This document shows, one piece after another, positions 3,592 through 60,051 of a stretch of 64,000 bases of DNA. Positions within the stretch are counted from its first letter, which is position 1. Each line of letters opens with the position of its first letter. This stretch comes from Candidatus Omnitrophota bacterium (GTDB lineage: Bacteria; Omnitrophota; Gorgyraeia; Gygaellales; UBA12090), in the NCBI GenBank assembly GCA_030674475.1, contig JAUSCZ010000014.1, positions 13,938 to 77,937 on the forward strand. The letters run 5' to 3'. The notes under the pieces are model-generated. The model saw only the letters and a list, made by a program, of their open reading frames with translations, had not been told where the DNA came from and ran no database searches. The translations under genes and the position numbers were made by a program.

Positions 3592-4077
3592 ATGTCCGGA
3601 AATTATAAAAAGAAAACCCAAGCCGTTGTTATCGGAAGCGACCACGGCGGATTTAGATTAAAAGAGAAGATTAAAAAATTCTTAGGAGATAAGGGTTATC
3701 AGATTAAGGATGTGGGCTGCTTTAACCAAGAGCCTTGCGATTATCCGGTATACGCGTATAAGGCGGCGAAAGAGGTATCTTTAAGGAATTTTTCTAAAGG
3801 TATTTTAATCTGTAAAAGCGGAATCGGGAATTCCATGGTGGCAAATAAACTCCCCGGGGTGCGGGCGGCTTTATGTTATAATCTAAAGGCGGCTAAGCTT
3901 TCCCGTCAGCATAACGACGCCAATGTTTTGGTTTTGGGGGCCTTATTTGTTAACGAGGCCCTAGCCAAGAGAATGGCAAGCCTTTGGCTGAAAACCGAAT
4001 TTGAGGGCGGAAGGCACTTAAGAAGGGTGAAGCAAATAAAAAAGATTGAGGATGAGATAAATCAAGATTATGCTTAA
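3592..4077 (+). CDS. rpiB: ribose-5-phosphate isomerase B
   Basis: VVIGSDHGGFRLKEKI... and the C/H catalytic region (GIGNSMVANK) of the RpiB/LacAB family. The neighbours (sua5, ywlE, glyA) follow the B. subtilis gene order. Confidence 0.9.
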   Translation: MSGNYKKKTQAVVIGSDHGGFRLKEKIKKFLGDKGYQIKDVGCFNQEPCDYPVYAYKAAKEVSLRNFSKGILICKSGIGNSMVANKLPGVRAALCYNLKAAKLSRQHNDANVLVLGALFVNEALAKRMASLWLKTEFEGGRHLRRVKQIKKIEDEINQDYA

Positions 4078-4649: not shown

Positions 4650-5057
4650 GTGGCAATTCCCAAAAAAGAAGAATACATTTTCTATCAGGGAGAGAAGTTT
4701 CAGATAGAGTTTTATTTTACTGAGACAGGAAAGATGCCCGCTAAAGAGTATTTGGAAGAGGTGGCTTTAGATGTAAAAGTAAAACTGGCCGCCCTGGTAA
4801 AATATATAGCAGAGCAGGGCAAGATATTCGATATAACAAAATTTAGAGCGGTAGATTCCCAGGAAAAAATCTACGAGTTTAAGCCTTGGCAATATCGGTT
4901 TTTTAATTTTTTCTATGAAGGAAGAAAAATAATCATTACTAATGGTTATATGAAAAAATCTCAAAAGGTAAACAGGAAAGATTTAGAAAGAGCCAGAGAT
5001 ATAAAAAAAGATTATACTTACAGAGTAAAAGGGGGTAACTATTATGGAGAAGAATAA
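4650..5057 (+). CDS. HigB/Gp49-like (RelE/ParE superfamily) toxin
   Basis: GTG start 5 nt after GAGGGGTG. Pattern ...KIYEFKPWQYRFFNFFYEGRKIIITNGYMKKSQK... matches phage Gp49-like/HigB toxins. Followed by an overlapping HTH antitoxin gene. Confidence 0.65.
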   Translation: MAIPKKEEYIFYQGEKFQIEFYFTETGKMPAKEYLEEVALDVKVKLAALVKYIAEQGKIFDITKFRAVDSQEKIYEFKPWQYRFFNFFYEGRKIIITNGYMKKSQKVNRKDLERARDIKKDYTYRVKGGNYYGEE

Positions 5058-6751: not shown

Positions 6752-7278
6752 AAAATAAAGAATACAAGCCCAGCCCTTGTAAGCAAGGGCTGGGTAAAGA
6801 TATCCGTCCTGATTGGGATGAATATTTCCTGGGGATAATTCAGGAAATAGCTAAAAGAGCCACCTGTGACCGGGGGAAAGCCGGCTGTGTAATCGTTAAG
6901 GATAAAAGAATCCTGGCTACCGGTTATGTGGGTTCGCCCGCCGGACAGCCGCACTGCGACGAGGCCGGGCATATGATGCGGGATGTGGTCAGCCCTGACG
7001 GCTCAATAAGCAAGCATTGTATCCGGACAATCCACGCCGAGCAGAACGCCATTTGTCAGGCGGCCCGCTTTGGCATACCTTTAGAAGGCTCAACCCTGTA
7101 TTGTAAAATGGAGCCCTGTTTTACCTGCGCCAAGATGATTGTAAACTGTGGAATAAAAAAAGTGGTCTGCTCCGGAAAATACCATGCCGCGCAGTCCAGC
7201 CGCGAATTGTTTAAAAAGGCAAAAGTAGAACTGCGCGTCTTATCTCAAGAGGTAGTAAGATATAAAGATCAGAGATAG
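6748..7278 (+). CDS. dCMP (deoxycytidylate) deaminase, ComEB-like
   Basis: Zinc-binding HAEQNAI ... PCFTCAKMIV cytidine/deoxycytidylate deaminase motifs. GTG start overlaps the stop of the conserved upstream uORF. Confidence 0.85.
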   Translation: MKNKEYKPSPCKQGLGKDIRPDWDEYFLGIIQEIAKRATCDRGKAGCVIVKDKRILATGYVGSPAGQPHCDEAGHMMRDVVSPDGSISKHCIRTIHAEQNAICQAARFGIPLEGSTLYCKMEPCFTCAKMIVNCGIKKVVCSGKYHAAQSSRELFKKAKVELRVLSQEVVRYKDQR

Positions 7279-7300
7279 TGAGGTAGCAGCATGAAAATGT

Positions 7301-7424
7301 CTAATGTCTAAATCCGAATGACGAATGAATACCTAATGCCCAAATTCCTAAATGTCCAATTTAGGAGCTCTTTCGTTATTTGGTCATTTAAGGAATTAGT
7401 CATTCGTTCGGCATTCGTCATTAG
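7301..7424. repeat. ~125-bp heptamer-periodic imperfect inverted repeat between the dCMP deaminase gene and nrdR
   Basis: Left arm CCGAATG ACGAATG AATACCT AATGCCC AAATTCC TAAATGT CCAA. Right arm TTGG TCATTTA AGGAATT AGTCATT CGTTCGG CATTCGT CATTAGG. The inner 17 bp are near-perfectly complementary. Confidence 0.6.
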
Positions 7425-7474
7425 GAATTCGCCATTAACGGTCTACAACACATATTATACGAGGGGATTTTATA

Positions 7475-14946: not shown

Positions 14947-15171
14947 GTGAGGCAATGGTTAAGCGGTAAGATTGTTAAAATAGCAATAAGATTGTGTTAT
15001 TGCAGGGGGGATTCAATGCTTATGGACAATCAAACTAAACAGAATATCCGTATTGTTTTAGAGTATCTTTGGCGCGATGAAGAACGGCACTATCTTGAAA
15101 GCCGGGAGTGCAAGAAGCATATTTTTCATATTTTAAAGCATTTAGCAAAAGTTGTTAAATATGAACCTTGA
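14947..15171 (+). CDS. small hypothetical protein upstream of the DpnI-like gene (true start possibly 15017)
   Basis: ORF only. RBS GGGGGGATTCA precedes the internal ATG. Overlaps the start of the REase gene. Confidence 0.3.
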   Translation: MRQWLSGKIVKIAIRLCYCRGDSMLMDNQTKQNIRIVLEYLWRDEERHYLESRECKKHIFHILKHLAKVVKYEP

Positions 15172-15931
15172 TTTGGATAAGCGAGCAGTTGAGTCCTATA
15201 AAAGCTCTTCACAAAGGGCGAGAGTTTTAACTGAGGCGTGGGTTAATAAAGAGGCTTATTGCCCTAATTGTGGTAATGCGCGTCTTACTAAATATTCTAA
15301 TAATAAGCCTGTTGCCGACTTCTTTTGTAGAAGTTGCAATGAGGATTTCGAACTTAAAAGCAAAAAGGATTCATTCGGAGCTAAAATTGTCGATGGGGAT
15401 TATCAAGCAATGCTTAAGAGATTAGCTGATGTTCATAATCCAAACTTCTTTTTGTTAAATTACGATTTATGTTCATATCAGGTTTTAAATTTCTTTGTGA
15501 TCCCAAAGCACTTTTTTGTTCCTGAAATCATCGAGGAGAGGAAACCCCTCTCAATTGACGCGGAGAGAGCGGAATGGATAGGGTGCAATATTTTATTAAG
15601 CAGAATGCCTGAAGCAGGCAGGATTTTCTTGGTTAAGGATGGACAGGTCAAACCAAAAGAAGATGTTTGCGCGGTTTGGCAAAAAACTCTATTTTTACGG
15701 GAAAAAAAGAAGGCTGAATCGAGAGGCTGGATTTTGGATGTTATGCGCTGCATTGAAGCGGTTCGCAAGAAGGAGTTTACCCTTGCGGACATTTATAAGT
15801 TTGAGTCTATACTGTTTGAACAACACCCTGACAACAGGCATATAAAAGATAAAATTAGACAGCAGCTTCAAATATTGCGAGACAAAGGCTATTTGGTATT
15901 TTTGGGAAAAGGCAGATATGGATTAGCGTGA
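15152..15931 (+). CDS. DpnI-family (Dam-replacing family) methyl-directed Type IIM restriction endonuclease
   Basis: Aligns along its whole length with R.DpnI as I recall it: YCPNCGN, PVADFFC, FELKSKK, NPNFF, WIGCNI, GRIFLV, KIRQQLQILRDK. PD-(D/E)XK N-domain plus a winged-helix C-domain. Confidence 0.75.
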   Translation: MLNMNLDLDKRAVESYKSSSQRARVLTEAWVNKEAYCPNCGNARLTKYSNNKPVADFFCRSCNEDFELKSKKDSFGAKIVDGDYQAMLKRLADVHNPNFFLLNYDLCSYQVLNFFVIPKHFFVPEIIEERKPLSIDAERAEWIGCNILLSRMPEAGRIFLVKDGQVKPKEDVCAVWQKTLFLREKKKAESRGWILDVMRCIEAVRKKEFTLADIYKFESILFEQHPDNRHIKDKIRQQLQILRDKGYLVFLGKGRYGLA

Positions 15932-17572: not shown

Positions 17573-18701
17573 AAGAGAAGCGCTGATAGCTTTGAATTTA
17601 ATTCCGGATATTGGAAGTATCCGCTTAAAGAATCTGCGGGAAGCCTTTGGCAGCGCGCCTAAGATATTTCTTAATTCGAAGGATTCACTTAAAAGGGTGG
17701 ATAAAATCGGAGACAAGATTGCCTCCGCTATTGCCGGGTTCTCCTTTGAGAGCCTGAAAAAAGAATTAGAATTAGCCGACAAGCTAAAGATTCAGGTAAT
17801 AACCCTGCGGGATAAGGATTATCCGCAAAGCCTCAAAGAAATTTATGACCCTCCTCTGTGCCTTTATGTTAAAGGCGGGTTATTGCCGTCGGATGTAGTG
17901 TCTTTGGCGATTGTCGGCAGTCGCCGGGCTTCTTATTACGGATTATCCTGCGCGCAAAATTTTGCTTACTCTTTAGCCGGAGCCGGGATTACCATTGTTT
18001 CCGGCCTGGCCCGGGGTATTGATACCCAGGCTCATAAGGGGGTCTTGAAAGCCAAAGGAAGGACAATAGCGGTTTTAGGCAGCGGCTTGAATTGTATCTA
18101 TCCTCCGGAAAATAAGAATTTGGCCGAGAAAATAGCCGAGAGCGGGGCGGTGGTTTCAGAATTTCCTTTAAACACCGAGCCGCTGGCCAGGAATTTTCCC
18201 CGGCGTAACCGGATCATCAGCGGCCTGTCTTTAGGGACGATTGTGGTTGAGGCCGCCAAAAACAGCGGCGCCCTGATTACCGCGGACTTTGCCCTGGAGC
18301 AGGGAAAAGATGTGTTCGCTATTCCGGGAAGCGTTACTTCCGCGACTTCCTTTGGCACAAACCAGCTGATTAAGCAAGGGGCAAAATTAGTTGACAGCGT
18401 TGAGGATATAATTGAGGAGCTAAGGCCAAGATTAGAAAATCTACTTAAGAATAAACCAATCTGTCCAATATCTGAACCTGAGACAAGAGAGGCGGTAGGT
18501 GTTAAACACAGCGGAAATAAAGCTTTAAGCGAAGAAGAGAAGAAAGTCCATAATCTATTAGAGAGTGAAAAAGCGCGTTATGTAGATGAGATTATTGAAA
18601 ATAGCGGTTTATCCAGCGCGAAGGTGATGAGTATACTCTTGAGGTTAGAAATAAATAAGCTAATCAAACAGCTTCCCGGAAAGATGTTTATAAGACAGTA
18701 A
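17565..18701 (+). CDS. dprA: DNA processing protein DprA (Smf)
   Basis: Rossmann core LAIVGSRRASYYG...GIDTQAHKGVL... plus a C-terminal winged-helix region. Confidence 0.9.
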   Translation: MTEREALIALNLIPDIGSIRLKNLREAFGSAPKIFLNSKDSLKRVDKIGDKIASAIAGFSFESLKKELELADKLKIQVITLRDKDYPQSLKEIYDPPLCLYVKGGLLPSDVVSLAIVGSRRASYYGLSCAQNFAYSLAGAGITIVSGLARGIDTQAHKGVLKAKGRTIAVLGSGLNCIYPPENKNLAEKIAESGAVVSEFPLNTEPLARNFPRRNRIISGLSLGTIVVEAAKNSGALITADFALEQGKDVFAIPGSVTSATSFGTNQLIKQGAKLVDSVEDIIEELRPRLENLLKNKPICPISEPETREAVGVKHSGNKALSEEEKKVHNLLESEKARYVDEIIENSGLSSAKVMSILLRLEINKLIKQLPGKMFIRQ

Positions 18702-18708
18702 GGCAATG

Positions 18709-18757
18709 CCTGCCTGCCGGCAGGCAGGGTTTGGCTTCCTATAGCCAAAGCCATAAG
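18709..18757. repeat. composite REP-like element: CCTGCCTGCCGGCAGGCAGG palindrome plus GGTTTGGCTTCC-N3-AGCCAAAGCCATAAG element
   Basis: Perfect 20-bp palindrome at 18709-18728, with a second palindromic unit directly after it. Both families recur elsewhere in the window. Confidence 0.7.
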
Positions 18758-21669: not shown

Positions 21670-21713
21670 TATCAGCTTTCAGCTTTCAGCTGTCAGCCGA
21701 TAGCCGATAGCCG
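21670..21713. repeat. heptanucleotide tandem array abutting the waaA start codon
   Basis: TTCAGCT TTCAGCT GTCAGCC GATAGCC GATAGCC GATG. Ends directly in the ATG with no SD-like sequence. Confidence 0.8.
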
Positions 21714-23003
21714 ATGTTCATCCTTTACGATTTTATTTTTATAATTTTTGTTTTACTGTATTTGCCGGGTTTTATTTTTAGAGGAAAATTTCACCCGGGG
21801 TTTTTGAACCGTTTGGGATTTTTTCCGAAAGATGTCCAAAATAGCTTAGCCGGAAAGCGTCCAATATGGCTGCATATGGTAAGCGTGGGAGAGGCACAGG
21901 CCTTAAGGATTCTTCTGGAGAAACTGCGCAAGGAGTATCCGGACAGAAAAATTGCTCTTTCTACGGTTACCCCGACCGGAAATAAAATTGCCAGGTCAAT
22001 AGCTGTTGAAGGCGATTTAGTCTTTTATCTTCCTTTGGATATAAGTTTTATCGTTAGATCCGTGGTGGATTTGATTAATCCCTGTCTTTTTGTTATTGCC
22101 GAGACCGAAATCTGGCCAAACTTAATAATGTATCTTACTACACGCGACATTCCGATAATCAGCGTAAACAGCCGGATATCCGATAAGTCTTTTAAAAGCT
22201 ATGCACTGATTAAATTCCTGCTCCAGGGTATCTTAAACAAAATAAGCTTTTTTTGCGTCCAAACCCAGACGGATTCCCAGCGCCTGTTGGCTTTAGGGGT
22301 TAATCCAGAGAAGATAAAGCTGACCGGGAATATGAAATTTGATAACGCGGATTTCGCGGAGAAAAAAAACAACGCAGATTCCGCGGATACAAGAAAACGT
22401 ATGCTCGCTTTAAAAGAAAAGGATACTCTTTGGGTGGCGGGAAGCACGCATCCGGGCGAAGAAGAAATCATCCTGGGAGTGTATAAAAACTTATTGCCGG
22501 AATTTCCTTTTTTAAAACTCCTTATCGCCCCTCGCCATCCTGAGCGGGCCAGGGAGATAGAAAAAGTAGTTCTTAATTATGGTTTTGATTCCGTATTTAT
22601 TTCCAAACTGCGACCATCGACTATTGACCATCGACCATCGACTATTTTTATTCTGGATACTATCGGCCAGCTTAAGGATTTTTACGCTGCCTCAGACATT
22701 GTTTTTATAGGCGGCAGCCTGATAAGAAAGGGCGGGCAGAATATTTTAGAACCGGCCCTCTTTTCCAAGCCGATTATCTTTGGGCCGTATATGTTTAACT
22801 TTCGGGATATCGCTGAACTTTTTCTTGTCTCAGGCGCCGCGGTCTTAGTAAAAGATAAAGAGGAATTGAGAGAAAAGATAAAAGATTTGTTGCTTCATCC
22901 GGAGTCTGCCTTAGAACTTGGCCGCCGGGCCAAGGAGTTATTACTGAAGAACCAAGGGGCCAGCGAAAGAAATATGGAAATTATAAAACAAGTTTTGGGT
23001 TAA
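21714..23003 (+). CDS. waaA: 3-deoxy-D-manno-octulosonic acid (KDO) transferase
   Basis: IWLHMVSVGEAQAL and C-terminal GT motifs. N-terminus resembles E. coli WaaA. Contains an in-frame 21-nt heptamer-based duplication at 22611-22652 (RPSTIDH/RPSTIFI). Confidence 0.9.
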   Translation: MFILYDFIFIIFVLLYLPGFIFRGKFHPGFLNRLGFFPKDVQNSLAGKRPIWLHMVSVGEAQALRILLEKLRKEYPDRKIALSTVTPTGNKIARSIAVEGDLVFYLPLDISFIVRSVVDLINPCLFVIAETEIWPNLIMYLTTRDIPIISVNSRISDKSFKSYALIKFLLQGILNKISFFCVQTQTDSQRLLALGVNPEKIKLTGNMKFDNADFAEKKNNADSADTRKRMLALKEKDTLWVAGSTHPGEEEIILGVYKNLLPEFPFLKLLIAPRHPERAREIEKVVLNYGFDSVFISKLRPSTIDHRPSTIFILDTIGQLKDFYAASDIVFIGGSLIRKGGQNILEPALFSKPIIFGPYMFNFRDIAELFLVSGAAVLVKDKEELREKIKDLLLHPESALELGRRAKELLLKNQGASERNMEIIKQVLG

Positions 23004-25909: not shown

Positions 25910-25977
25910 AGCTATCAGCTATCAGCTATCAGTAATCAGCTGAAAGCCGAAAGCTGAAAGCCGAAAGCTGAAAGCCG
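25910..25977. repeat. heptanucleotide tandem array abutting the start codon of the GT4-GT9 gene
   Basis: AGCTATC x3, AGTAATC, then AGCTGAA/AGCCGAA alternating x5, ending ...AGCCGATG at the ATG. Confidence 0.8.
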
Positions 25978-28065
25978 ATGAATATTCTGCAAATATTGCC
26001 TGAACTTAATTACGGCGGGGTGGAGACCGGAACGGTGGACTTGGCTAAGTACTTAGTCAAGGCTCAGCATAAGGCGGTAGTGGTTTCCGCCGGAGGAGAA
26101 TTAGTAGATAAGCTTAAATGCTTGGGCGCTGTTCATTATTCTCTGGCAGTTAATAAAAAATCCTTATTTTCAATTGTCCGGGCTTGTTTTGAGCTGGTAA
26201 AGATTATTCAAAGAGAAGATATCCGGGTAGTCCATGCCCGTTCCCGGGTTCCGGCCTGGAGCGCTTATTTTGCCGCTAAGCTAACCAATGTCCCTTTTAT
26301 TACCACTTGCCATGGTTATTATTCCCGGCATATTTTAAGCCGGGTGATGGGCTGGGGAAAATTAGTGATTGTGCCCAGTCAGATAATCGGAAGGCGCATG
26401 ATTGATGATTTCGCGGTATCCCCGGAGAGGATAAGGTTGATACCGCGCGGTGTGGATGCCGAAAATTTTACCTTTATCTTACCTGAGGAAAAAAGCCGCA
26501 CCGAGTTCGTGATTGCTTTTATCGCCAGGATTACTCCGATAAAGGGACATCTTTATTTTATCAAGGCAATCCAGCGGGTTTACCGCAGTATTCCTAATAT
26601 TAAGGTCTGGATTATCGGCACCGCCCCCAAATCCAAGTTTCATTATAAAGAGGACCTGGAGATTCTGGTCAAGCGTTTGGGATTGGCGCATATCGTTGAA
26701 TTTTTAGGCAAGAGAAACGATATCCCTCAGCTTTTTTCTAAAATCAATCTTTTGGTTATGGCCTCAACTACCCACGAGGCCTTTGGCCGGGTGATTGTCG
26801 AGGCTCAAATCTCCGGGGTTCCGGTAGTGGCTACCCGGGTAGGAGGGGTGGTAGACATTGTCGAGGATGGCGTGGATGGCCTCCTGTGCGTTCCTAAAGA
26901 TTCTGAAGGTATGGCTGAGGCAATTATCAGGATTTTAAGGGATAATGAGCTAAGCTCTCTATTAGCCAAAAACGGCCATCTTAAAGCGCTTTCAAAATTC
27001 AACTTAGAGAAGATGGCTAAAGACACCCTGGAGGTTTATCAGGAGGCAGTTGGTTTTAAAAGAATTCTGATAATAAAACTGAGCGCTTTGGGCGACCTTA
27101 TCCTTTCGATTCCGGCCTTGAAGGCGATACGTAAGAAATACCATTCTCCTCATAAGATAACCCTGCTTACCGGAAAGGCGATAGCCGCGGTAGTAAGTAA
27201 TTGTCCTTATCTGGATGAGGTAATGGTGTATGATTTTAATGAGAGCGATAAAGGCATCTTCAAGCTTTTTCACCTGGGTAAGGAATTAAGAAGAAAGAAT
27301 TTTGATATGGTCGTTGACCTGCAGAATAATCGCAAGAGCCATATCCTCTGCGCCCTTTCTTTAGCCTCGCTAAGATGCGGCTATCAAAATAAGAAGTTTA
27401 GCTTTTTGCTTAATCGTAAGGTCAAAGAAGATAAATTTATCCTGGGCCCCCTGGAACATCAGTTCCGGGTTTTAAATCTGTTGGATATTGAACTCAAAGA
27501 CAGAAAGATTGAACTTTGGCCTTCAAAAGAGGATGAGAGATATATTGATGATTTTTTAAATTCAGAATGGTTGAGCGGGAGTCAGATTTTGGTGGGGGTC
27601 CACCTTAGTTCTTCCCAGAAATGGCTTACCAAGCGCTGGCCGCTGGAATATGCCGCCCATTTGGTTGAAGAGCTGGCTTTAAGGGATATTCGCGTGGTTT
27701 TAACCGGAGAAAGAATGCCTCAAAATGAGTTGAGAGTTTTTAACGAGATGGCCAAGAAGTCTAAGCCGATTATCGCCTGCGGAAAAACCACCATCAATCA
27801 GCTGGCCTGCCTGATTAAACGTTGTAATGTATTTATCTCAGGCGATACCGCGCCTTTACATATTGCCTCCGGAATCGGCACGCCGGTAATCGCGCTATTC
27901 GGCCCGACTGACCCGCGCCGGCATATCTCCTCGGAGAAAGACGCGTTGATATTAAAAAAAGACTTAGAGTGTCAGCCCTGCTATAAGCCAAAATGCGTAT
28001 CCATAGAGTGCATGAAGAAGATAAGCGTGGATGAGGTCAAAGAGGCGGTATTAAAGCTATTATGA
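25978..28065 (+). CDS. fusion of a GT4 glycosyltransferase (N-terminal) and an ADP-heptose:LPS heptosyltransferase (GT9, C-terminal)
   Basis: GT4 C-terminal motif EAFGRVIVEAQISGVPVVATRVGG. GT9 N-terminus RILIIKLSALGDLILSIPAL and C-terminus LHIASGIGTPVIALFGPTDP. Confidence 0.8.
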   Translation: MNILQILPELNYGGVETGTVDLAKYLVKAQHKAVVVSAGGELVDKLKCLGAVHYSLAVNKKSLFSIVRACFELVKIIQREDIRVVHARSRVPAWSAYFAAKLTNVPFITTCHGYYSRHILSRVMGWGKLVIVPSQIIGRRMIDDFAVSPERIRLIPRGVDAENFTFILPEEKSRTEFVIAFIARITPIKGHLYFIKAIQRVYRSIPNIKVWIIGTAPKSKFHYKEDLEILVKRLGLAHIVEFLGKRNDIPQLFSKINLLVMASTTHEAFGRVIVEAQISGVPVVATRVGGVVDIVEDGVDGLLCVPKDSEGMAEAIIRILRDNELSSLLAKNGHLKALSKFNLEKMAKDTLEVYQEAVGFKRILIIKLSALGDLILSIPALKAIRKKYHSPHKITLLTGKAIAAVVSNCPYLDEVMVYDFNESDKGIFKLFHLGKELRRKNFDMVVDLQNNRKSHILCALSLASLRCGYQNKKFSFLLNRKVKEDKFILGPLEHQFRVLNLLDIELKDRKIELWPSKEDERYIDDFLNSEWLSGSQILVGVHLSSSQKWLTKRWPLEYAAHLVEELALRDIRVVLTGERMPQNELRVFNEMAKKSKPIIACGKTTINQLACLIKRCNVFISGDTAPLHIASGIGTPVIALFGPTDPRRHISSEKDALILKKDLECQPCYKPKCVSIECMKKISVDEVKEAVLKLL

Positions 28066-28082: not shown

Positions 28083-28222
28083 CAAACACCAAATCCCAAA
28101 TTACAAATAATAATCAATAATCAAATCCCAATAACCAAACCAAGATAGATTCTTCGTTTGGATGATTGGTTATTGATGTTTGGAATTTATTTGGTGCTTG
28201 TTATTTGGTTATTGGTGATTCA
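28083..28222. repeat. heptamer-periodic long imperfect inverted repeat in the 5' leader of the GT4 gene
   Basis: Left arm AATAACC AAACACC AAATCCC AAATTAC.... Right arm GTTTGGA TGATTGG TTATTGA TGTTTGG ... TTGGTTATTGG. The arms are largely complementary. Confidence 0.65.
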
Positions 28223-28223
28223 G

Positions 28224-29336
28224 AATATGAATATTTTAATTCTGGCCAATCATTTTAATCCCGGAGGGATATCCAGCTATATCTTAAATTTGGCTCAAGG
28301 ATTGGCGGTGAAAGGACATCAGGTATCTGTCGGTTCCGCGGGCGGGGAGTGGGTGGAGAGGCTTAAGAAAAATAATATAGAACATATTAATCTGCCTTTA
28401 AAAACCAAATCCATAATCAGCCCTAAGCTTTTGTTTTCTTATTTTATTTTAAAGAAGGAGTTAAGGGATAAACGGATTGATATAATCCACAGCCAGACCC
28501 GGGTTACCAGCGTTTTGGCTTATTGGTTATCCCGAAAGACCCTGGTTCCTTTTATTTCTACCGCCCATGGTTTTTTTAAGCCGCGCTGGGTGAGGTTAAG
28601 ATTTCCCTGTTGGGGGGATTTGGTTATTGCTATCTCAGAGGCAGTCAAAGAGCATTTAATCGCGGATTTTAAGGTTATTCCGAATAAGATACGATTGGTG
28701 CATAATGGAATTAGCCTGAGCAGAGAACAGATAAACACCTGCCTGCCGGCAGGCAGGGATAACAGAGAACAGATAAGGAAAGGGCTTGGATTAAAAGAGG
28801 GGCCGGTGGTGGGAATTATTGCCCGGCTTTCTGAGGTAAAAGGACATATATATTTGATTCAGGCAATGAAGAAGGTTATCGAAGAAATCCCGGAGGCCCA
28901 ACTTTTGAGCGTGGGAGACGGAGCGATAAAAAAAGAATTAGAGAATCTCGCGCGCAGTTTGGGTGTCTTAGGGCGGATAAGTTTTGTTCCCGCGGTCGCG
29001 GACACCCGGGAGGCGCTCTCGGTAATGGATGTCTTTGTGATGCCCTCTTTGCAGGAAGGATTGGGTCTATCTATAATGGAGGCGATGCTTTCCGGACTGG
29101 CGGTAATCGCTTCTTCAGTCGGAGGCATACCGTCTTTGATTAAAGACGGACACACTGGGATATTAGTCGCGCCTAAAGACGCGGAGGCTTTAGCTCAGGC
29201 GATAATCAGCCTGTTGAGGGATAATAAAAAGGCATTCGAATTAGGCAAAAATGCCCGGGAATTGATTGTAAAAGAATTTTCTTTAGAGAGAATGGTTCAG
29301 GAGACAGAAGAGGTTTATCAACAATGCCTAAGGTAA
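28224..29336 (+). CDS. GT4 glycosyltransferase (group 1) carrying a 14-aa in-frame repeat-derived insertion
   Basis: GT4 motifs (EGLGLSIMEAMLSGLAVIASSVGG). Internal ATG at 28224 (MNILILANHFNPGG) is preferred. The track ORF starts at 28158 inside the inverted repeat. Confidence 0.8.
   Translation, partial: NMNILILANHFNPGGISSYILNLAQGLAVKGHQVSVGSAGGEWVERLKKNNIEHINLPLKTKSIISPKLLFSYFILKKELRDKRIDIIHSQTRVTSVLAYWLSRKTLVPFISTAHGFFKPRWVRLRFPCWGDLVIAISEAVKEHLIADFKVIPNKIRLVHNGISLSREQINTCLPAGRDNREQIRKGLGLKEGPVVGIIARLSEVKGHIYLIQAMKKVIEEIPEAQLLSVGDGAIKKELENLARSLGVLGRISFVPAVADTREALSVMDVFVMPSLQEGLGLSIMEAMLSGLAVIASSVGGIPSLIKDGHTGILVAPKDAEALAQAIISLLRDNKKAFELGKNARELIVKEFSLERMVQETEEVYQQCLR
28735..28762. repeat. 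REP-like palindrome CCTGCCTGCCGGCAGGCAGG inserted in-frame inside the GT4 CDS
   Basis: 28-nt insert flanked by 14-nt direct repeats CAGAGAACAGATAA (28721-28734 and 28763-28776). Net +42 nt, read as REQI-NTCLPAGRDN-REQI. Confidence 0.75.
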
Positions 29337-30127: not shown

Positions 30128-30131
30128 ATGA

Positions 30132-30163
30132 GTAGGGGCGAACCTGCGTGTTCGCCCGAATAA
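30132..30163. repeat. GTAG-headed REP-like hairpin (GTAGGGGCGAAC-CTGCGT-GTTCGCCC-GAATAA)
   Basis: Near-identical copy at 42221-42252 (1-nt difference in the loop). Both sit directly after stop codons. Confidence 0.7.
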
Positions 30164-30348
30164 TGACTATGAGAGAGAAGATGACAGAGCCAAATAAACC
30201 TATCGGGAAGATGATCAGAATTGATGATTTTCTGCCGCCGCCAGAGGAGTTAGTCATTCCTCAAGAGACGGTAAAGGTTACGATAGCTCTTAGTAAATTA
30301 AGCATAGGTTTTTTTAAGCATCAAGCCAAGCAACACCGCACGCGCTAA
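30148..30348 (+). pseudogene. truncated BrnA/CopG-like antitoxin fragment (orphan)
   Basis: ...IRIDDFLPPPEELV...VKVTIALSKLSIGFFKHQAK matches the N-terminal two thirds of BrnA-like antitoxins. The C-terminal GxPYQTLI part is missing. No toxin gene nearby. Confidence 0.5.
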
Positions 30349-30463
30349 GACACATCGCAGGGACAAGGCTTCTAACGGGCCAGAGGGCCGTGCCTACCGG
30401 TAAGGAACCGAATAGCCAAAGCCAAGGAATTCTAATCCAGGGGGATATTAAACGAGGTGAGTA

Positions 30464-30853
30464 ATGAGAAAAGAAGTTTTAGATAATGAATTGGCTAAAA
30501 TAGAAAAGATTAGCAAAGAGTTTGATGTGAAAAAAGTATTTTTGTTTGGTTCGTGTCTCGAAAGCGTTGAGACGGCTAATGATATTGATATAGCAGTAGA
30601 GGGAATTAAGGCCAAGGACTTTTTTAAATACTATGGAAGAATCTCTATGGCTACAGATAATGAAGTTGACTTAGTTGATTTGGATGATATTAGAGAGCAT
30701 TTCCAGAAAAGAATTTTATCTAAAGGGAGGATTATATATGAAAGAGCAGTAAGAGCGATACAGGTGGATGATTTTATTTTAGATTCTTTGAAATTTCCAG
30801 TGGGTAAGATAGAAATCCTCCCCTTACCAAGGGGAGGCGGGGAGGGGTTATAA
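30464..30853 (+). CDS. minimal nucleotidyltransferase (MntA/Pol-beta superfamily), orphan
   Basis: FLFGSCLESVETANDIDIAV (GS-X9-DxD) motif. Its C-terminal 12 codons read into palindromic repeat copy 1. No HEPN partner follows. Confidence 0.6.
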   Translation: MRKEVLDNELAKIEKISKEFDVKKVFLFGSCLESVETANDIDIAVEGIKAKDFFKYYGRISMATDNEVDLVDLDDIREHFQKRILSKGRIIYERAVRAIQVDDFILDSLKFPVGKIEILPLPRGGGEGL

Positions 30854-31350
30854 CCAAGGCATTTAATAGACCAGAGCAAAAACTAAAGCGCAAGGCATTG
30901 AGACGCAATATGCCCTTAGCTGAAGTTATTTTATGGAGTAGATTAAAAGGCAAACAATTAGAAGGCTGTAAATTCAGAAGGCAGTATTTGAAATCCTCCC
31001 CTTAACAAGGGGAGGCGGGGTGGGGTCATTAAGCATTTTGTCATAGATTTTTATTCTACTGAATTAAGATTAGCCATAGAACTTGACGGAGAGTCTCACT
31101 ATGTCCAGGACGCGCCGTTGGCGGATAGGGAGAGACAAAACCAAATTAAGGTATTCGATGTTCAATTCCTGAGGTTTACGAACCAGGATATATATGAAAA
31201 TTTAGAAGGGGTATTATTAAAGATAGTTGAACAGATTAAACAAATTACCTCCCCTACCCCTCCTTGGTAAGGAGGGGATAAGAAATCTTTCTATTAACAA
31301 ATGAGGTAAGAAATCCTCCCCTTACCAAGGGGAGGCGGGGAGGGTAAGAA
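30813..31350. repeat. cluster of four ~40-bp palindromic repeats (AAATCCTCCCCTTACCAAGGGGAGGCGGGGAGGG), three direct and one inverted
   Basis: Copies at 30813-30853, 30991-31033, 31247-31286 (inverted) and 31311-31350. Copy 2 splits a DUF559 ORF and brings in a TAA stop. Confidence 0.75.
30868..31270 (+). pseudogene. DUF559 (Vsr-like endonuclease domain) gene disrupted by a palindromic repeat
   Basis: N-part RRNMPLAEVILWSRLKGKQLEGCKFRRQY. C-part VIDFYSTELRLAIELDGESHY...VQFLRFTNQDIYENLEGVL. The two parts match consecutive DUF559 blocks and are separated by the 43-nt repeat at 30991-31033. Confidence 0.65.
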
Positions 31351-31467
31351 AGTAGTTTTGTAGTCAACGAATGAATTTACTCACTCAAAACTTTAAAGGA
31401 CCTAAAATATGCCTGGCCAGGAGATTTTTTGGCTCATTAATGCTTAGATACATGGACTTAACTAAAA

Positions 31468-38174: not shown

Positions 38175-38186
38175 AGAAAGTTAACA

Positions 38187-38714
38187 GTGAACAGAGTACA
38201 GATAACAGAAAAAATAAAAAAGATAAAATTGCTTATTCTGGATGTGGATGGAGTGCTTACTGACGGCAGGATAATTTATGATTCTCAGGGCCGGGATTCC
38301 AAGTTTTTTGATGTTCATGACGGCCTGGGGGTGTATCTTTTAAAAATGGCGGGGATTAAAACCATCCTGATTACCGCTAAAGGTTCAAAAACAATTAAAC
38401 CTAGAGCCAAAGATATGCGGGTTGAGGAGTTTTACGAAGACATTTTTCCTAAAACAAAAGTTTTGGCTAAAATTCTTAAAAAACACCGGATAAAAACTGA
38501 GAATATCTGTTTTATCGGTGATGATTTGGTGGATTTAAGCATAATGAAGGCGGTGGGCTTTCCGGTGGCTGTGGCCAACGCCAGCGAGGATATCAAGGCC
38601 GCCGCAAGTTATATTACCCAAAAAAAAGGCGGCCGGGGCGCGGTCCGGGAGACAGCTGAGCTGATTTTAAAGACTCAAGGTAAATGGCGGAAAGCAATTA
38701 GTATATATCAATAG
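38187..38714 (+). CDS. kdsC: KDO-8-phosphate phosphatase (HAD superfamily)
   Basis: LLILDVDGVLTDGRIIYD...GDDLVDL motifs and ~175 aa length. Confidence 0.85.
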   Translation: MNRVQITEKIKKIKLLILDVDGVLTDGRIIYDSQGRDSKFFDVHDGLGVYLLKMAGIKTILITAKGSKTIKPRAKDMRVEEFYEDIFPKTKVLAKILKKHRIKTENICFIGDDLVDLSIMKAVGFPVAVANASEDIKAAASYITQKKGGRGAVRETAELILKTQGKWRKAISIYQ

Positions 38715-38720
38715 AGCCGG

Positions 38721-38825
38721 CAAGCCAAAGCCATAAGCCAGAGGGCGATGGTTTGCATTCCATATAAGCAAAGCCATAAGCCAGAGGGCGATGGTTTGCA
38801 TTCCATATAAGCAAAGCCATAAGCC
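38721..38825. repeat. ~44-bp tandem repeat x2.4 (AAGCAAAGCCATAAGCCAGAGGGCGATGGTTTGCATTCCATAT)
   Basis: Two full units (38721-38765, 38766-38808) and a partial third. The unit contains the AGCCAAAGCCATAAGCC core shared with the in-CDS insertion at 32365-32415. Followed by TTGACA at 38827. Confidence 0.8.
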
Positions 38826-41541: not shown

Positions 41542-41606
41542 AAGAGCTTTCAGCCTTCAGCAGAAAGCAGAAAGCAGAAAGCTGTTTAACGGAGGAGGAC
41601 ATTAAG

Positions 41607-42220: not shown

Positions 42221-42283
42221 GTAGGGGCGAACCTGTGTGTTCGCCCGAATAACAGCGGGCAGACACGTAGGTCTGCCCCTACA
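42221..42283. repeat. nested REP-like element: GTAGGGGCGAAC-loop-GTTCGCCC hairpin plus GGGCAGAC-acgtag-GTCTGCCCCTAC hairpin
   Basis: First hairpin is the twin of 30132-30163. The whole unit is bracketed by GTAGGGGC...GCCCCTAC. Confidence 0.7.
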
Positions 42284-45046: not shown

Positions 45047-45086
45047 ATTAACTTTATATCTTGACTGTCCAAATTAGCCATTACGT

Positions 45087-45181
45087 TGTCATTCCCGCAA
45101 TCTTTTGGCGGGAATCCACGACGATAGAAAAACCTGCCTGCCTGCCGGTAGGCAGGGATGCCCGCCTTCGCGGGCATGACA
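45087..45181. repeat. composite MITE-like palindromic element (TGTCATTCCCGC ... CCTGCCTGCCTGCCGGTAGGCAGGGA ... GCGGGCATGACA)
   Basis: Terminal inverted repeats TGTCATTCCCGC / GCGGGCATGACA. Internal GCGGGAA hairpin and a family-1 palindrome. A related shorter copy is at 48251-48294. Confidence 0.65.
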
Positions 45182-46422: not shown

Positions 46423-48222
46423 ATGACAGCGAGAAATCAGAAGCTAATAAAAATTTCTTTACTGGTTACTGGTTACTGGTTACTTTTCTCCGCGCATTGT
46501 TTCGCTGAAAAGATAACCATCCTTTACACCGGGTCAACCCATGCCGCGCTCTATCATTGTGATTGTCCGGTTCAGCCGGACGGCGGAGTGGGCCGGAGAA
46601 TGGCTAAAGTCAAAGAGCTGCGCGATAAGAATCCTAATGTTATTTTGGTAGACGCGGGAGGATTCTTTGCCGGCGGGGAGCCGGATGAACACAGCCAAGG
46701 CGTCCAATTAGATAAAACGCGCACCGAAATCAACCTGAAGGCCCTTGAGCTTATGGGCTATGACGCCGTGGCTGTCGGTGATGATGAATTTAACTTTGGC
46801 CGGGATTATTTATCCGCTCAAATCAAAAAATCAAAGATTGCCTTTTTATCCTGCAACTTGAAGATGGATGGCCTGAAGCCTTATCTGATTAAAAAAGTGT
46901 CTGGCCTTAACGTCGCTCTTATCGGCTTAACCAATCCTCAAACCAAGGCTAAGTCGGACGGATTGGAAGTAGAGGACCCCTATCAGGCCTTAGCCAGAAC
47001 TATTTCTGAGGTCAAGACAAATAAGGCTGATCTGGTGGTAGTTTTAAGTTATCTGGGGGAAGAAGAAGATACTAAGTTGATTACCCAGATTGACGGTGTG
47101 GATGTTATTGTCTCTGCCAGGCCTCAGGACAGTAAAGAGCCTTTCAGCAAAATCGGCAAAGGTATCCTGGTCCGGGCCTCCTGGCAGGGAAGGCATTTAG
47201 GAAAATTGAATATGGAGTTGGAGAATAAGAAGATAAAAGAAACCAAAGTAGAAGATATCCGTCTATCTAATGAAATAGCCGATTGGCCCCAGCTAAAAAA
47301 ACAAGTGCCGGCCTGTTTTGAGGATTCCGCCTGCCGTAAGGAGGGCTTAATCGGTAAATGCCTTAATCCCGGCAAGATCAACTCTTCTTGCGGTTATGAG
47401 AAACCCAAACAGATTTCTCTTTTGGTTATCCAGCCCAAAGATATAAAAGACGTTCAGCAGGAAAAATTTTTAAGCTTCTTAAGGAAGCTTTTTCCGGGAT
47501 TACAGGTTAATTTTGTTGATTCTGATTCCGCGGCTGGTAAATCCTGGATAGTAAGAACTCAGGCCAAGCTTTTGCCGGTGTATCTGATTGCCAAGGAGGC
47601 GGATACGCAAGGGGAATTCAAGGATATCAAGGATTTTGCCGAGCTAAAAGATGATTATTATTGTCTAAGCCCGCGGCTTTCCGGCGGCCTGATATTCATT
47701 GGCCGGCCCAGGATAGCCCATACCTTAGATGTCTTTATGGGAACTAAAGGCAATAAAGGCTCAGAGGTCTTATCCTTGTTAAGAGACCTCCGGGCCGGGC
47801 ATAAAGAATTAGGTATTAAACTGCATTATCTGGCAATTGAGACTCAAAATGGTTTCGCCGCCCCCGGCGGCATAGCGGAATTAGAAGAAGATATGAGGCA
47901 GGTTTGCCTCGGTAAATATCAGCCGGATAAGCTCTGGGATTACGCTTTGTGCCGTTTCAAAAATCAGGATAGTTCCTGGTGGGAGGTGTGCGCCGAGCAG
48001 TTTGGGATTAACCCGACAGCGATCAAGAAATGCGCTCTTTCCCAGGAAGGGTTGGATTTGTTACGAGAAAACATTGGATTGAATAAAGAGCTGGAAATAT
48101 CCATCGGGCCGGTGTTTTTGGTGAATAATAATGAGGTATACGCGGCTAAAAATTTCAGCCGGGTTGAGGAGTTGGAAAAACTCCTGGGTTTAGTCGGCCA
48201 TATAGAAAAAAATAAGGATTAA
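46423..48222 (+). CDS. secreted 5'-nucleotidase/calcineurin-like metallophosphoesterase with a C-terminal thioredoxin-like region
   Basis: Signal peptide. UshA-like blocks ILYTGSTHAALY, DAGGFFAGG, GYDAVAVGDDEFNFG. Has an in-frame TGGTTAC x3 heptamer triplet at 46464-46484. Confidence 0.55.
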   Translation: MTARNQKLIKISLLVTGYWLLFSAHCFAEKITILYTGSTHAALYHCDCPVQPDGGVGRRMAKVKELRDKNPNVILVDAGGFFAGGEPDEHSQGVQLDKTRTEINLKALELMGYDAVAVGDDEFNFGRDYLSAQIKKSKIAFLSCNLKMDGLKPYLIKKVSGLNVALIGLTNPQTKAKSDGLEVEDPYQALARTISEVKTNKADLVVVLSYLGEEEDTKLITQIDGVDVIVSARPQDSKEPFSKIGKGILVRASWQGRHLGKLNMELENKKIKETKVEDIRLSNEIADWPQLKKQVPACFEDSACRKEGLIGKCLNPGKINSSCGYEKPKQISLLVIQPKDIKDVQQEKFLSFLRKLFPGLQVNFVDSDSAAGKSWIVRTQAKLLPVYLIAKEADTQGEFKDIKDFAELKDDYYCLSPRLSGGLIFIGRPRIAHTLDVFMGTKGNKGSEVLSLLRDLRAGHKELGIKLHYLAIETQNGFAAPGGIAELEEDMRQVCLGKYQPDKLWDYALCRFKNQDSSWWEVCAEQFGINPTAIKKCALSQEGLDLLRENIGLNKELEISIGPVFLVNNNEVYAAKNFSRVEELEKLLGLVGHIEKNKD

Positions 48223-48250
48223 CCTGAGACTGTTGCAAAATGTCTAAAAA

Positions 48251-48294
48251 TGTCATTCCCGCGAAAGCGGCCTGCCTGCCGGTAGGCAGGGAAT
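48251..48294. repeat. REP-like element TGTCATTCCCGC-gaaa-GCGG-CCTGCCTGCCGGTAGGCAGG-GAAT
   Basis: Family-1 palindrome nested in ATTCCC/GGGAAT arms. Shares its 5' end with the 45087 element. Confidence 0.65.
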
Positions 48295-48403
48295 CCATAA
48301 CCCTAATAAAATCAATATGTTTGGATTGCCCAGTCAAGCCGGGCAATGACAAAAATGGAGTTTTGCAACAGCCTGAAGGCGGAATTATTTAAGAGGTGAG
48401 AAA

Positions 48404-49642: not shown

Positions 49643-49766
49643 TGCGCTGTTAATTTGATTTTTAATAAGACAGCGCACAGAGCAATTGAGCAATAGACAA
49701 TAGAACAATAGACAAACAAAAGCTCAATTGCGGTCTAATGCTCTATTGTTCAAAAACTAATTTTAA

Positions 49767-51040: not shown

Positions 51041-51085
51041 GCTTATAGCTAATGGCTTTTCACTATAAGCCATAAGCCATAAGCA
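51041..51085. repeat. palindromic heptamer array ATGGCTT ATAGCTA ATGGCTT ... ATAAGCC ATAAGCC ATAAGCA upstream of hppA
   Basis: GGCTTAT-type heptamers on the left and their reverse complement ATAAGCC repeated on the right. Confidence 0.7.
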
Positions 51086-55647: not shown

Positions 55648-56478
55648 ATGTCTGACGCAAAATGTCCGGGGCAGAATCCCCAATATTGGAAGCCGGAAGA
55701 TGCCTTTGAGGTTAGCTGTCCTAATTGTAAGGAAATAGTTGAGTTTTTTAAGGATGAGCCCAAGAGGCGATGCCATAACTGTAAGCAAGAGGTAGTTAAT
55801 CCTAAGGTTGACTTTGGCTGCGCCCTTTGGTGCCCTAAGGCAGTTGACTGTATCGGTCAGGAGCGTTATCAACAATTATTGGCCGCGGCCAAGAGTCAGC
55901 CCAAGCCGGATAAATACCGGACTAAAAAAGACCTTCTGCTTTTTGAGATGGAAAAGTATTTCGGAGGTGATGAGCGCCGGATAAACCATGCCAGGAAGGT
56001 TTTGGAGTTTGCTGAGCAACTGCTTGAAAAAGAGCAGGCGGCTTGGGCTATGGGAAGCTCAACCCTGCCTACCGGCCAGGCAGGCACAGCCTGCCGGCCA
56101 GCCGATCCCCTGGTGGTTATTTCCGCGGCCATACTCCATGATATCGGAATACATAAGGCCCAAGAAAAATATAAAAGCAGTGCCGGGAATTACCAGGAGA
56201 TAGAGGGGCCTCCCATTGCCAGGGTTATTATGGAGAAGCTCCAGTTTAAAAAAGAGATAATTGACGAGGTCTGCGAGATTGTTGCCCATCATCATTCTCC
56301 GGGTAAGGTTGATACTCTTAATTTTAAAGTGCTTTATGACGCGGACTGGTTAGTCAATCTCAAGGATGAATTTGATACCAGTAGTAAAGAAAAACTGGCC
56401 AAAACAATTAATAAGGTATTTCTCACCTCTAGCGGGAAAGAATTAGCGAACCAGATTTATAGTAGGGGCGGGTTCTAA
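55648..56478 (+). CDS. zinc-ribbon plus HD-domain phosphohydrolase
   Basis: N-terminal CPxC...CxNC pairs. HD motifs H(N)H...ILHDIG...AHHHSP...YDADWL. Has an internal CCTGCCTACCGGCCAGGCAGG palindrome at 56066-56102. Confidence 0.65.
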   Translation: MSDAKCPGQNPQYWKPEDAFEVSCPNCKEIVEFFKDEPKRRCHNCKQEVVNPKVDFGCALWCPKAVDCIGQERYQQLLAAAKSQPKPDKYRTKKDLLLFEMEKYFGGDERRINHARKVLEFAEQLLEKEQAAWAMGSSTLPTGQAGTACRPADPLVVISAAILHDIGIHKAQEKYKSSAGNYQEIEGPPIARVIMEKLQFKKEIIDEVCEIVAHHHSPGKVDTLNFKVLYDADWLVNLKDEFDTSSKEKLAKTINKVFLTSSGKELANQIYSRGGF

Positions 56479-56490
56479 ACCCGCCCCTAC
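56462..56490. repeat. 29-nt GTAG-headed REP hairpin GTAGGG-GCGGGTT-cta-AACCCGC-CCCTAC
   Basis: Same 6+7+3+7+6 architecture as 60052-60080 and 63458-63486, with a fully covarying inner stem. Lies across the stop codon of the upstream gene. Confidence 0.8.
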
Positions 56491-59863: not shown

Positions 59864-60051
59864 CATGAACAAAAAGGGGACAGGCTGATTTTATTCTGAT
59901 TGTTCCCATATAGTAATTTGTAGCGGTTGCCGCCTGCCTGCCGGCAGGTAAGGCAACTAGTGGTGAGCGCAGTCGAACCACGATATCATAAGGTCAGTGG
60001 ACACTGACCCCTACACGCTGACCGCTACAGACTGATTCTTGTAGATTGAAT

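Follow-up and report, generated by a model that had tools for sequence, protein, structure and literature searches.

Comparison with Known Repeats

Repetitive extragenic palindromic (REP) sequences and their REPIN doublets are mobilized by RAYT transposases (REP-associated tyrosine transposases) of the IS200/IS605-type HUH Y1 group, and intragenic REPs are known (PMC3733652, PMC3116915). Here, we describe a perfect 20-nt palindrome, pal20, in a GT4 glycosyltransferase gene of a Candidatus Omnitrophota bacterium. The gene lies on a 64,000-nt stretch of contig JAUSCZ010000014.1 (positions 13,938 to 77,937, forward strand), called the window throughout. pal20 is probably a discrete, REP-like, non-autonomous and hairpin-forming repeat that was cleanly inserted, without target duplication, into a pre-existing heptanucleotide (heptamer) tract of five units.

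pal20 shares several features with REPs. It is a short, GC-rich, palindromic and dispersed hairpin that is mostly intergenic and at times lies wholly in an open reading frame (ORF), in frame. Its length is within the short range of the REP size class of 20-40 nt, it is without target-site duplication and its copy number varies between related genomes. However, REPs are imperfect palindromes, whereas pal20 is perfect, with no loop asymmetry. REPs also have a GTAG (or CGTC) tetranucleotide conserved at one end (PMC3733652), but pal20 (CCTGCC...GGCAGG) carries neither tag, and the flanks of 170 copies are without a conserved one. REPINs are commonly inverted doublets at fixed spacing, and pal20 is not arranged in this way. 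RAYT genes typically have REPs at their flanks (a REPtron). No RAYT was found with pal20, either in a Pfam scan of the window or with an approximate probe over 2.3 Mb. REPs are largely species-specific, whereas the pal20 sequence is identical in different phyla, and pal20, unlike REPs, strongly prefers heptanucleotide tracts.

Rickettsia palindromic elements (RPEs) are about 100-150 bp long, code for a conserved peptide with a fixed reading frame and occur in Rickettsia only (PMC10969869). pal20 resembles them in being a selfish palindromic repeat in frame in unrelated housekeeping genes, with its peptide at fold-compatible sites. In contrast to RPEs, it is 20 nt long, out of frame unless one base is added, read in several frames and present in several phyla. 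An earlier reading of the window from sequence alone (the sequence-only reading) had likened the palindrome to in-frame elements such as RPEs and intragenic REPs, and this is a fair functional analogy. [quoted passage not shown] Unlike a DDE-type MITE, it is 20 nt long, makes no duplication and has no parent IS in view, with no half-sites or transposase in the window.

The small dispersed repeats (SDRs) of Nostocaceae are said to be 21-27 nt long, and Elhai and colleagues reportedly judged them in 2008 to be mobile from filled and empty orthologous sites. One of them, SDR5, is said to use HIP1 (GCGATCGC) sites. We take the Nostoc SDRs to be the closest to pal20 in size and in the absence of a transposase. 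The unit of pal20 is 20 or 21 nt, it has filled and empty orthologous sites, no transposase was found for it and it is at times nested in other repeats. As in cyanobacteria with their short tandemly repeated repetitive (STRR) sequences, the host genome has many heptanucleotide tandem repeats. pal20 and the SDRs, compared here by description, are unlike in sequence and come from different phyla. The SDRs are summarized in a later text (PMC5861425).

The TAACTGA heptanucleotide repeats of Beggiatoaceae lie upstream of start codons, with a few in ORFs at tolerant positions (MacGregor 2015, PMC4679880). Related repeats are the cyanobacterial STRR and the long simple sequence repeats (LSSR; Mrazek et al. 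2007). The window and related genomes have many period-7 tracts of 3-6 units, which are also mostly just upstream of starts, with few in ORFs. One heptamer dominates in Beggiatoaceae, whereas in the window and its relatives the unit varies by locus and species. In contrast to the described heptamer repeats, tracts of the window type serve as landing sites for pal20, which those papers do not report. Neither the exact pal20 sequence nor a report linking heptamer tracts to a palindromic element was found in the literature searched.

pal20 Lies in a Heptamer Tract That Exists Without It

The ORF at 28158..29336 (+) stays open across the palindrome-bearing segment, and orthologues indicate that its start codon is the ATG at 28227 (MNILIL...). 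The window protein is exactly NCBI MDO8747885.1 (P0121), from a Candidatus Omnitrophota metagenome-assembled genome (MAG). As the sequence-only reading had described, the palindrome and two exact 14-nt repeats lie in frame in this gene. The 14-mer CAGAGAACAGATAA is found twice, at 28721-28734 and 28763-28776. The perfect 20-nt palindrome CCTGCCTGCCGGCAGGCAGG is at 28738-28757, within the 28-nt segment 28735-28762, and the translation across this region is ...REQINTCLPAGRDNREQI.... The features of the locus, as read from its comparison with homologues and with the empty allele of a relative (L243), are as follows:

28227..29336 (+): GT4 glycosyltransferase coding sequence, 369 aa, assigned from homologues and Pfam GT4 domains
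28721..28776 (+): heptanucleotide tract carrying pal20, 8 heptamer lengths (56 nt), encoding the loop between two Rossmann domains
28721..28734 (+): left two tract units, CAGAGAA CAGATAA; the same pair is in L243 and also in tracts of the L001 type
28735..28735 (+): one additional A (TAA to TAAA relative to the empty allele), the sole difference between the window tract minus pal20 and the L243 tract
28736..28737 (+): CA, opening bases of the split middle unit CA^GATAA, from comparison with L243
28738..28757 (+): pal20, the inserted element, missing from L243, L001, L005, L006 and L007
28758..28762 (+): GATAA, last five bases of the split middle unit, from comparison with L243
28763..28776 (+): right two tract units, CAGAGAA CAGATAA, the exact second 14-mer

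The GT4 gene of L243 (protein P0139) has 89% nucleotide identity to the window gene over its length. Its linker is without pal20 and reads CAGAGAA CAGATAA CAGATAA CAGAGAA CAGATAA, so that both 14-mers are present at a spacing of 7 nt with no palindrome between them. When pal20 is taken out of the window allele, what is left is this five-unit tract plus one A. The 14-nt direct repeat is thus, from the aligned alleles, two tract units on each side of pal20. The sequence-only reading had taken it for an insertion product, but because both 14-mers pre-exist in L243 they are not a target-site duplication, and the site is a heptanucleotide tandem tract. The gain had likewise been given as 42 nt (14 aa), whereas relative to the empty alleles it is 21 nt (7 aa). 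At the protein level, REQI-TD-NREQI becomes REQI-NTCLPAGRD-NREQI.

Comparison with orthologues bore out the suggestion that the segment is lineage-specific, since the close orthologues L001, L005, L006, L007 and L243 lack pal20. All close orthologues have a period-7 tract at the same linker position, with units that differ. The tracts of these and one other relative are as follows:

L001: (AACAGAG)x4 + AACAGAT
L005 and L007: units of the AACCAGA type
L006: GTCGCCA and GTCTCCA in alternation
L003: AAAAATC units with pal20 at the centre

The linker, measured from HNGI to VVG, was then compared among 62 species. It is 99 nt long (93 in some species) with or without a tract, and the shortest is 78 nt. 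Every linker that bears pal20 is 21 nt longer: 114 nt in the window against 93 in its nearest tract-only relatives, and 120 against 99 in L003 and L023. Taking 21 nt out of the L023 linker leaves a perfect (TTCAGAG)x4. Among the orthologues, P0007 was represented by its cluster mate P0145. pal20 is present in 4 of the 18 tract-bearing GT4 alleles and in none of the 44 tract-less ones. A separate hairpin family of 24 nt (CCCTCGACTTCGC.CGGG.CAGG) sits in the same GT4 tract of L244 and L026, and the tract is thus a general landing site.

The sequence-only reading had named an assembly artefact as something that could undo the insertion call. This was not upheld, since the filled allele is identical in an independent Logan assembly (P0123). 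Three more assemblies (L004/P0001, P0122 and P0124) have the same insertion plus point substitutions. A sequencing adapter or assembly artefact is ruled out by the heritable variants, the mutated orthologous copies and the five independent assemblies.

Copies in Coding Loops Are 21 nt Long

The GT4 gene is one of several in which the palindrome is in frame. In LpxK, the family occurs in frame in the variable loop (SRGY to GDEP) of five species, with a different heptamer unit in each. The LpxK loop with pal20 has 24 aa (17 + 7), and tract-only alleles have 17 aa (five units). One LpxK allele reaches 24 aa through eight units with no hairpin. The loop of the window's own lpxK has neither tract nor pal20. 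L023 has two more in-frame copies in a 696-aa protein, and further ones were found in L019 and L074. Depending on the gene, pal20 is read in one of at least two frames, giving PCLAGRQ or (T)CLPAGR / LPAGR.

Of the copies embedded in tracts, 12 in long ORFs and 1 outside have an insert of 21 nt, and 10 outside ORFs and 2 in doubtful ORFs have one of 20 nt (Fisher p = 2e-4). The additional base takes different forms: in some copies T, G, C or A is bulged out at one of several positions, and in others, such as the window and L003, the base flanks the element. Since the length tracks ORFs and the extra base is so variable, the native unit is 20 nt, with genes keeping only the variants that are a multiple of three. 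We also considered heptamer phase (21 = 3 x 7) as the cause of the 21-nt length, but in non-coding tract copies it is the removal of 20 nt that restores the tract. The 21-nt length thus reflects codon phase.

An AlphaFold2 (AF2) model of the GT4 protein was built from the orthologue alignment and reached a mean predicted local distance difference test score (pLDDT) of 89.4 and a predicted template modelling score (pTM) of 0.84. In this model, pLDDT is below 50 at residues 173-176 (LPAG) only, the centre of the palindrome-encoded peptide, and these residues join the N- and C-terminal Rossmann domains. The inserted residues are therefore predicted to occupy a disordered surface loop between the domains. 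The earlier claim that a mobile palindrome is tolerated in frame agrees with these results, as the frame is kept and the residues are in a disordered interdomain loop.

The pal20 Family Outside the GT4 Gene

The window was searched for the palindrome with up to 2 mismatches, with 100 shuffles as the null. This gave 5 matches against 0.00 expected. The four copies other than the GT4 copy are all intergenic. With a degenerate relative, they are as follows:

18709..18728 (unstranded): exact pal20 in the dprA-topA spacer; with another hairpin, GGTTTGGCTTCCTATAGCCAAAGCC, it belongs to a composite of about 64 nt (18690-18753)
45137..45156 (unstranded): intergenic pal20, 1 mismatch (CCGGTAGG), with CCTG added at 45133, between two other small hairpins
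48271..48290 (unstranded): pal20 with 1 mismatch, intergenic, nested in a different hairpin repeat's stem (GTCATTCCCGCGAAAGCGG^GAATCC) and lacking a target duplication
59933..59952 (unstranded): pal20 with 2 mismatches, intergenic, at the tip of a host hairpin (GTTGCCG...GGCAAC)
56063..56084 (+): degenerate 22-nt pal20 relative CCCTGCCTACCGGCCAGGCAGG, 3 edits, in the HD-domain protein ORF 55648-56478, encoding ...STLPTGQAG...

The claim of a dispersed palindromic repeat is borne out by these copies and by those in other genomes. The intergenic copies announced at 18709, 48271 and 59933 were found, and the one placed at 45134 is at 45137, the shift being accounted for by the extra CCTG. The further copies in the window number four, not at least five. 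The degenerate relative at 56063-56084 lies in an apparently extended loop of the HD-domain protein and could be another in-frame relic. Each of the five window copies stands singly, as do the copies in most contigs. No isolated half-sites of pal20 were found in the window, and a search of the whole window against Rfam at the gathering threshold gave 0 matches.

The composite at 18690-18753 consists of AAGGCAATG + pal20 + GTTTGGCTTCC..AGCCAAAGCC. Copies in L023 at 4811-4878 and 7208-7271 have 88-94% identity to it, the latter being 94% identical. L023 is a species with a GT4 that is merely 53% identical, and the composite, with pal20 as a part, may itself be a dispersed element of larger size. 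The dprA-topA spacer is wholly different in three close relatives, each with its own small hairpin, which shows a fast turnover of such elements.

A census of Omnitrophota was made in 1.33 Mb of DNA fetched around orthologous loci, and it gave 22 credible copies. Fourteen of these are inside heptamer tracts, against a null frequency of 0.00065 (with the element removed, the period-7 register score is reached at 0.065% of random positions). The tract units differ by site and include AGTCGTC, TCCGCTA, CNACGAC, TAACTAG, TTGGTTA, TTCAGRG and others. An unbiased search for tandem tracts split by a spacer recovered mainly the pal20 family.

The exact 20-mer is present in at least 120 metagenome contigs, with a GC content of 29-71% among the matches listed, and in 35 IMG/VR contigs. 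Its hosts are Omnitrophota, Patescibacteria and phage-like contigs. Contig L147, with four copies, is assigned to Patescibacteria by RecA, and one pal20-bearing viral contig encodes a phage adaptor protein. Most copies in other phyla are without a tract. As single-stranded DNA, pal20 would form a hairpin with a stem of 8-10 bp at about -8 to -9 kcal/mol. Phage-like contig L241 has, at 3915-4040, a 21-nt tandem array of at least 6 copies of a pal20 variant (CCATGCCTACCGGCAGGCAGG) within an ORF, so pal20 can apparently also amplify in tandem.

The sequence-only reading had proposed a cataloguing of flanks. Carried out on 170 distinct exact copies, it revealed no target duplication with a length of 2-9 nt, and the MITE-like mechanism implied by that reading is wrong. 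Flank matches show no excess over expectation for k = 2-6 and 9. There is one match apiece at k = 7 and k = 8, attributed to tract flanks. The 170 copies have no target consensus except for a depleted T at -1 and a depleted A at +1. After excision of 20 nt, 9 of 160 copies have strongly period-7 flanks (null 0.00025), and for periods 4-6 and 8-12 the count is 0 of 160. The enrichment of pal20 in period-7 tracts is thus about 200-fold, with none for any other period.

Some copies seemed at first to lie in functional tRNA genes. These are truncated 5' tRNA fragments, with pal20 in the D-arm, beside intact tRNAs (L160:642-700 and 816-880; L166:1-70), and insertion into working tRNA genes was rejected. 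In these fragments, taking 20 nt out exactly restores a canonical D-arm. De novo origin by fold-back copying of the local GGCAGGCAGG was also considered, but as a general source of the element it is disfavoured by the more than 170 unrelated contexts in which the 20-mer is identical.

Age of the Insertion

The GT4 gene of L004 has 94.3% nucleotide identity to the window gene, with the same insertion and the same junctions. The tract plus pal20 differs at 6 of 56 positions between the two, which equals the third-codon-position divergence of the genes (10.5%). The insertion is therefore old relative to the divergence of the strains, and it evolves neutrally in L004. It had been taken to suggest an active or recently active element, but it predates the split of the two strains. 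The changes that could be polarized are all on the L004 side, at counts too small to interpret. The L023 copy is an independent gain, since L023 is nested in the tree among lineages with plain linkers.

Proposed Mechanism

We propose that, in an ancestor of the strain, pal20 inserted into the middle unit (CA^GATAA) of the five-unit tract now seen in L243. This tract would have encoded the flexible linker between the two Rossmann domains of a GT4 belonging to a lipopolysaccharide (LPS) cluster. The extra A beside pal20 completes the 20-nt insertion, so that 21 nt would have been gained, the frame kept and seven residues added to the disordered loop. This A may have arisen after the insertion or arrived with pal20. 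Heptamer tracts and the loops or stems of other hairpins would be preferred as targets since they readily expose slipped or single-stranded DNA. Coding copies whose length is not a multiple of three would be removed by selection.

pal20 would be moved in trans by an enzyme encoded elsewhere. The nature of the targets, together with the absence of duplication, would point to a single-strand pathway and not to a DDE transposase. The most plausible routes would be a HUH/RAYT-type single-strand DNA pathway or replication-associated template switching. That the HUH-type route specifically moves pal20 is a tentative suggestion.

Several points weigh against this explanation. The sequence-only reading had called for a cognate RAYT/IS200-like transposase, and neither this nor any other transposase was found among about 47 window ORFs by Pfam scan. 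A tblastn search of 2.3 Mb for a Y1 transposase gave no match, which is weak evidence given the approximate query (IS608 TnpA). The high-copy contigs L147 and L228 have no recurrent neighbouring gene. The independent events are fewer than the copies, as seen with the three L023 copies, which are alike in variant and in flanking unit. The association with tracts could partly come from a shared tolerance of unconstrained DNA, or it could come from hairpin-induced tract formation instead of targeting. The direction, insertion as opposed to precise loss in L243 and L001, is read from the wider spread of the empty state. Finally, the filled allele may have been received by homologous recombination, with no transposition event of its own in this strain.

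Alternative Explanations

This last point can be stated as an alternative, which we regard as possible: the filled allele reached the strain from a relative by homologous recombination, after a single original insertion elsewhere in the population. The L004 GT4 is a mosaic that is window-like through the linker and L005-like in the C-terminal domain. Since L004 groups with L005 outside the linker and yet has the window's insertion and junctions, these groundwater strains evidently recombine. The age of the allele, corresponding to at least 10.5% third-position divergence, also fits an import. However, recombination explains the spread of the allele and not its origin. It leaves unaccounted for the pal20 copies in tracts of unrelated units (L003, L023 and LpxK of five species) and those in other phyla.

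Another explanation, which seems doubtful, is that the tract and hairpin form a phase-variation (contingency) switch of an LPS gene, through 7-nt slippage or through gain and loss of the 20-nt hairpin. Slippage deletion classically acts on a perfect palindrome between perfect repeats (palindrome instability), and the 14-nt repeats around pal20 fit this description. Period-7 tracts are present in the LPS genes for GT4, LpxK and kdtA (22611) and at the kdsC start (38183), and the native 20-nt unit is out of frame. In addition, contigs of two MAGs (P0126 and P0141, cluster members of P0002 and P0006) end at or beside the tract, as expected if the tract is heterogeneous in the sampled population. 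On the other hand, no out-of-frame alleles were observed, and full-length cluster members are equal in tract length. The tracts are short (4-5 units) and imperfect, and such tracts also occur in non-surface genes and intergenic spacers.

It is also unlikely that the hairpin came first and the tract second, with stalling or processing that duplicates the flanks in 7-nt steps or with cycles of insertion and excision that leave 7-nt footprints. This order would account for the absence of pal20 from the 44 tract-less GT4 linkers, for the same unit on both flanks of a copy and for the shared variant and unit of the three L023 copies. But tract-only alleles outnumber filled ones in GT4 (11 against 4), several LpxK alleles are tract-only and the empty allele L243 has the identical tract. 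Because tract-bearing and tract-less linkers are equally long (99 nt), the tracts are not additive footprints. Tracts without a hairpin are also plentiful in the window (6 exact against 0.13 expected), and the pal20 copies of other phyla are mostly without a tract.

We think it very unlikely that pal20 is not mobile at all and is a conserved functional motif, whether as a site bound by a protein, as an RNA structure or as a peptide under selection. In favour of this, different phyla have the same 20-mer, and of the six substitutions between the window copy and L004, none is on the window side. Nevertheless, pal20 is missing from most orthologues, and its reading frame differs by gene (PCLAGRQ or LPAGR). 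Other hairpins and tRNA fragments also hold copies, which lie in coding as well as non-coding DNA. Rfam gave no match, the encoded residues are disordered and the L004 copy decays at the neutral rate.

Hardly credible is a MITE-like 28-nt element that duplicated 14 nt at a staggered cut in a gene with a single CAGAGAACAGATAA, because, although exact 14-mers do bracket the 28-nt palindrome segment and the total of 42 nt (14 aa) is in frame, the unoccupied L243 already holds both 14-mers, each is two heptamer units of a tract found in all close orthologues, the predicted ancestral linker of 72 nt is below the shortest of the 62 orthologues (78 nt, typically 93-99), none of 170 other copies has a target duplication, and the ACA and GATAA beside the palindrome are tract sequence and not conserved element sequence.

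Significance

RPEs and intragenic REPs already provide examples of in-frame palindromic repeats in genes, so such a repeat is not novel in itself. The unusual part is that an identical 20-mer across phyla and phage-like contigs, clean insertion and the lack of a recognized transposase or REP tag are found together. To these are added a roughly 200-fold preference for period-7 tracts, recurrence in loops of LPS enzymes across species and a length of 20 or 21 nt that follows coding status. Should pal20 move by a new route, it would rank with the smallest mobile DNAs known, and it would link heptanucleotide tandem repeats with tiny palindromic repeats, both of which are poorly understood. These data also indicate that, in these genomes, direct repeats on either side of an insertion may be no more than a plain tandem tract, and target-site duplications should therefore be checked against the empty allele.

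A more speculative interpretation is that pal20 represents a class of 20-nt mobile DNA not described before, which unrelated ultra-small bacteria have in common with their phages and which homes to slipped-strand or hairpin DNA and above all to heptamer tracts. Together, pal20 and the tracts might then be a hypermutable cassette that remodels loops of envelope enzymes. If this were true, the class would be without REP tags and transposase, and its bacteria would be Omnitrophota and Patescibacteria. The loops remodelled would be those of GT4, LpxK and heptosyltransferase-like proteins, with coding copies surviving only as +1 (21-nt) variants.

Other Repeats and Genes in the Window

Heptamer tracts are common in the window beyond the GT4 gene. 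The 6 exact period-7 tracts are of at least 2.5 units, and about 18 of 53 Tandem Repeats Finder rows have a period of 7. The tracts are as follows:

2473-2497, 7296-7311, 7407-7436, 21672-21715, 25910-25978, 28109-28124, 41559-41582, 49691-49715 and 51065-51084: intergenic period-7 tracts of 2-6 units, the unit differing per site
22611-22642: CGACCAT x4.6, in kdtA
38183-38209: AACAGAG x3.9, at the kdsC start, with a unit as in the GT4 linker
46459-46484: TTACTGG x3.7, near the start of a 599-aa protein without a Pfam match

Heptamer tracts in short spacers often stop at the next start codon or up to about 25 nt from it. The tract at 21695-21715 overlaps the kdtA ATG, and the tract at 25938-25978 abuts the ATG at 25978. 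Two other groups of hairpins were found in the window:

30132-30157, 42221-42246, 56462-56490, 60052-60080 and 63458-63486: canonical GTAG-tagged REP-like hairpins (GTAGGG....CCCTAC), a family apart from pal20
45080-45110, 45157-45180, 48250-48296 and 48330-48355: small hairpin repeat families GTCATTCCCGC...GCGGGAATCC, GATGCCCGCCTTCGCGGGCATGAC and TTGCCCAGTCAAGCCGGGCAATGAC

The GTAG-tagged hairpins suggest that a RAYT may exist elsewhere in the genome. The small hairpin families cluster in spacers that bear pal20, and one of them houses a nested copy. In L001, at 300-385, a GTAG-type hairpin (GTAGGGGCAGGTTCTGAACCTGCCCCTAC) lies between inverted heptamer tracts (GAATATC GAATAAT ... TTCGATA TTCGATA), an arrangement that differs from that of pal20 within a tract.

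By synteny with annotated relatives, the GT4 gene is within a co-directional cluster for lipid A, 3-deoxy-D-manno-octulosonic acid (Kdo) and the LPS core. The first part contains kdtA, lpxK, a lipid A acyltransferase, a fused GT4-GT9 and the palindrome-bearing GT4. The second part contains a polysaccharide deacetylase, two GT9 heptosyltransferases, kdsB/A/D/C and lptC/A/B. The window genes beyond this cluster are housekeeping genes, and amid them, at 15152-15931, is a gene for a DpnI-like methyl-directed restriction endonuclease (Pfam DpnI, DpnI_C). Relative to L006 and L001, a segment at 30130-31460 is added between the deacetylase and the first GT9. It holds three copies of a 40-nt repeat, GAAATCCTCCCCTTACCAAGGGGAGGCGGGGAGGGG, at 30812, 30990 and 31310, and a Polbeta-type nucleotidyltransferase at 30464-30853 that is possibly the antitoxin of a toxin-antitoxin pair. 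Between kdsC and lptC, a perfect 43-nt tandem repeat (CAAAGCCATAAGCCAGAGGGCGATGGTTTGCATTCCATATAAG, 2.3 copies) is present at 38726-38825, and it is kept at the orthologous spot in L006 (19593-19707).

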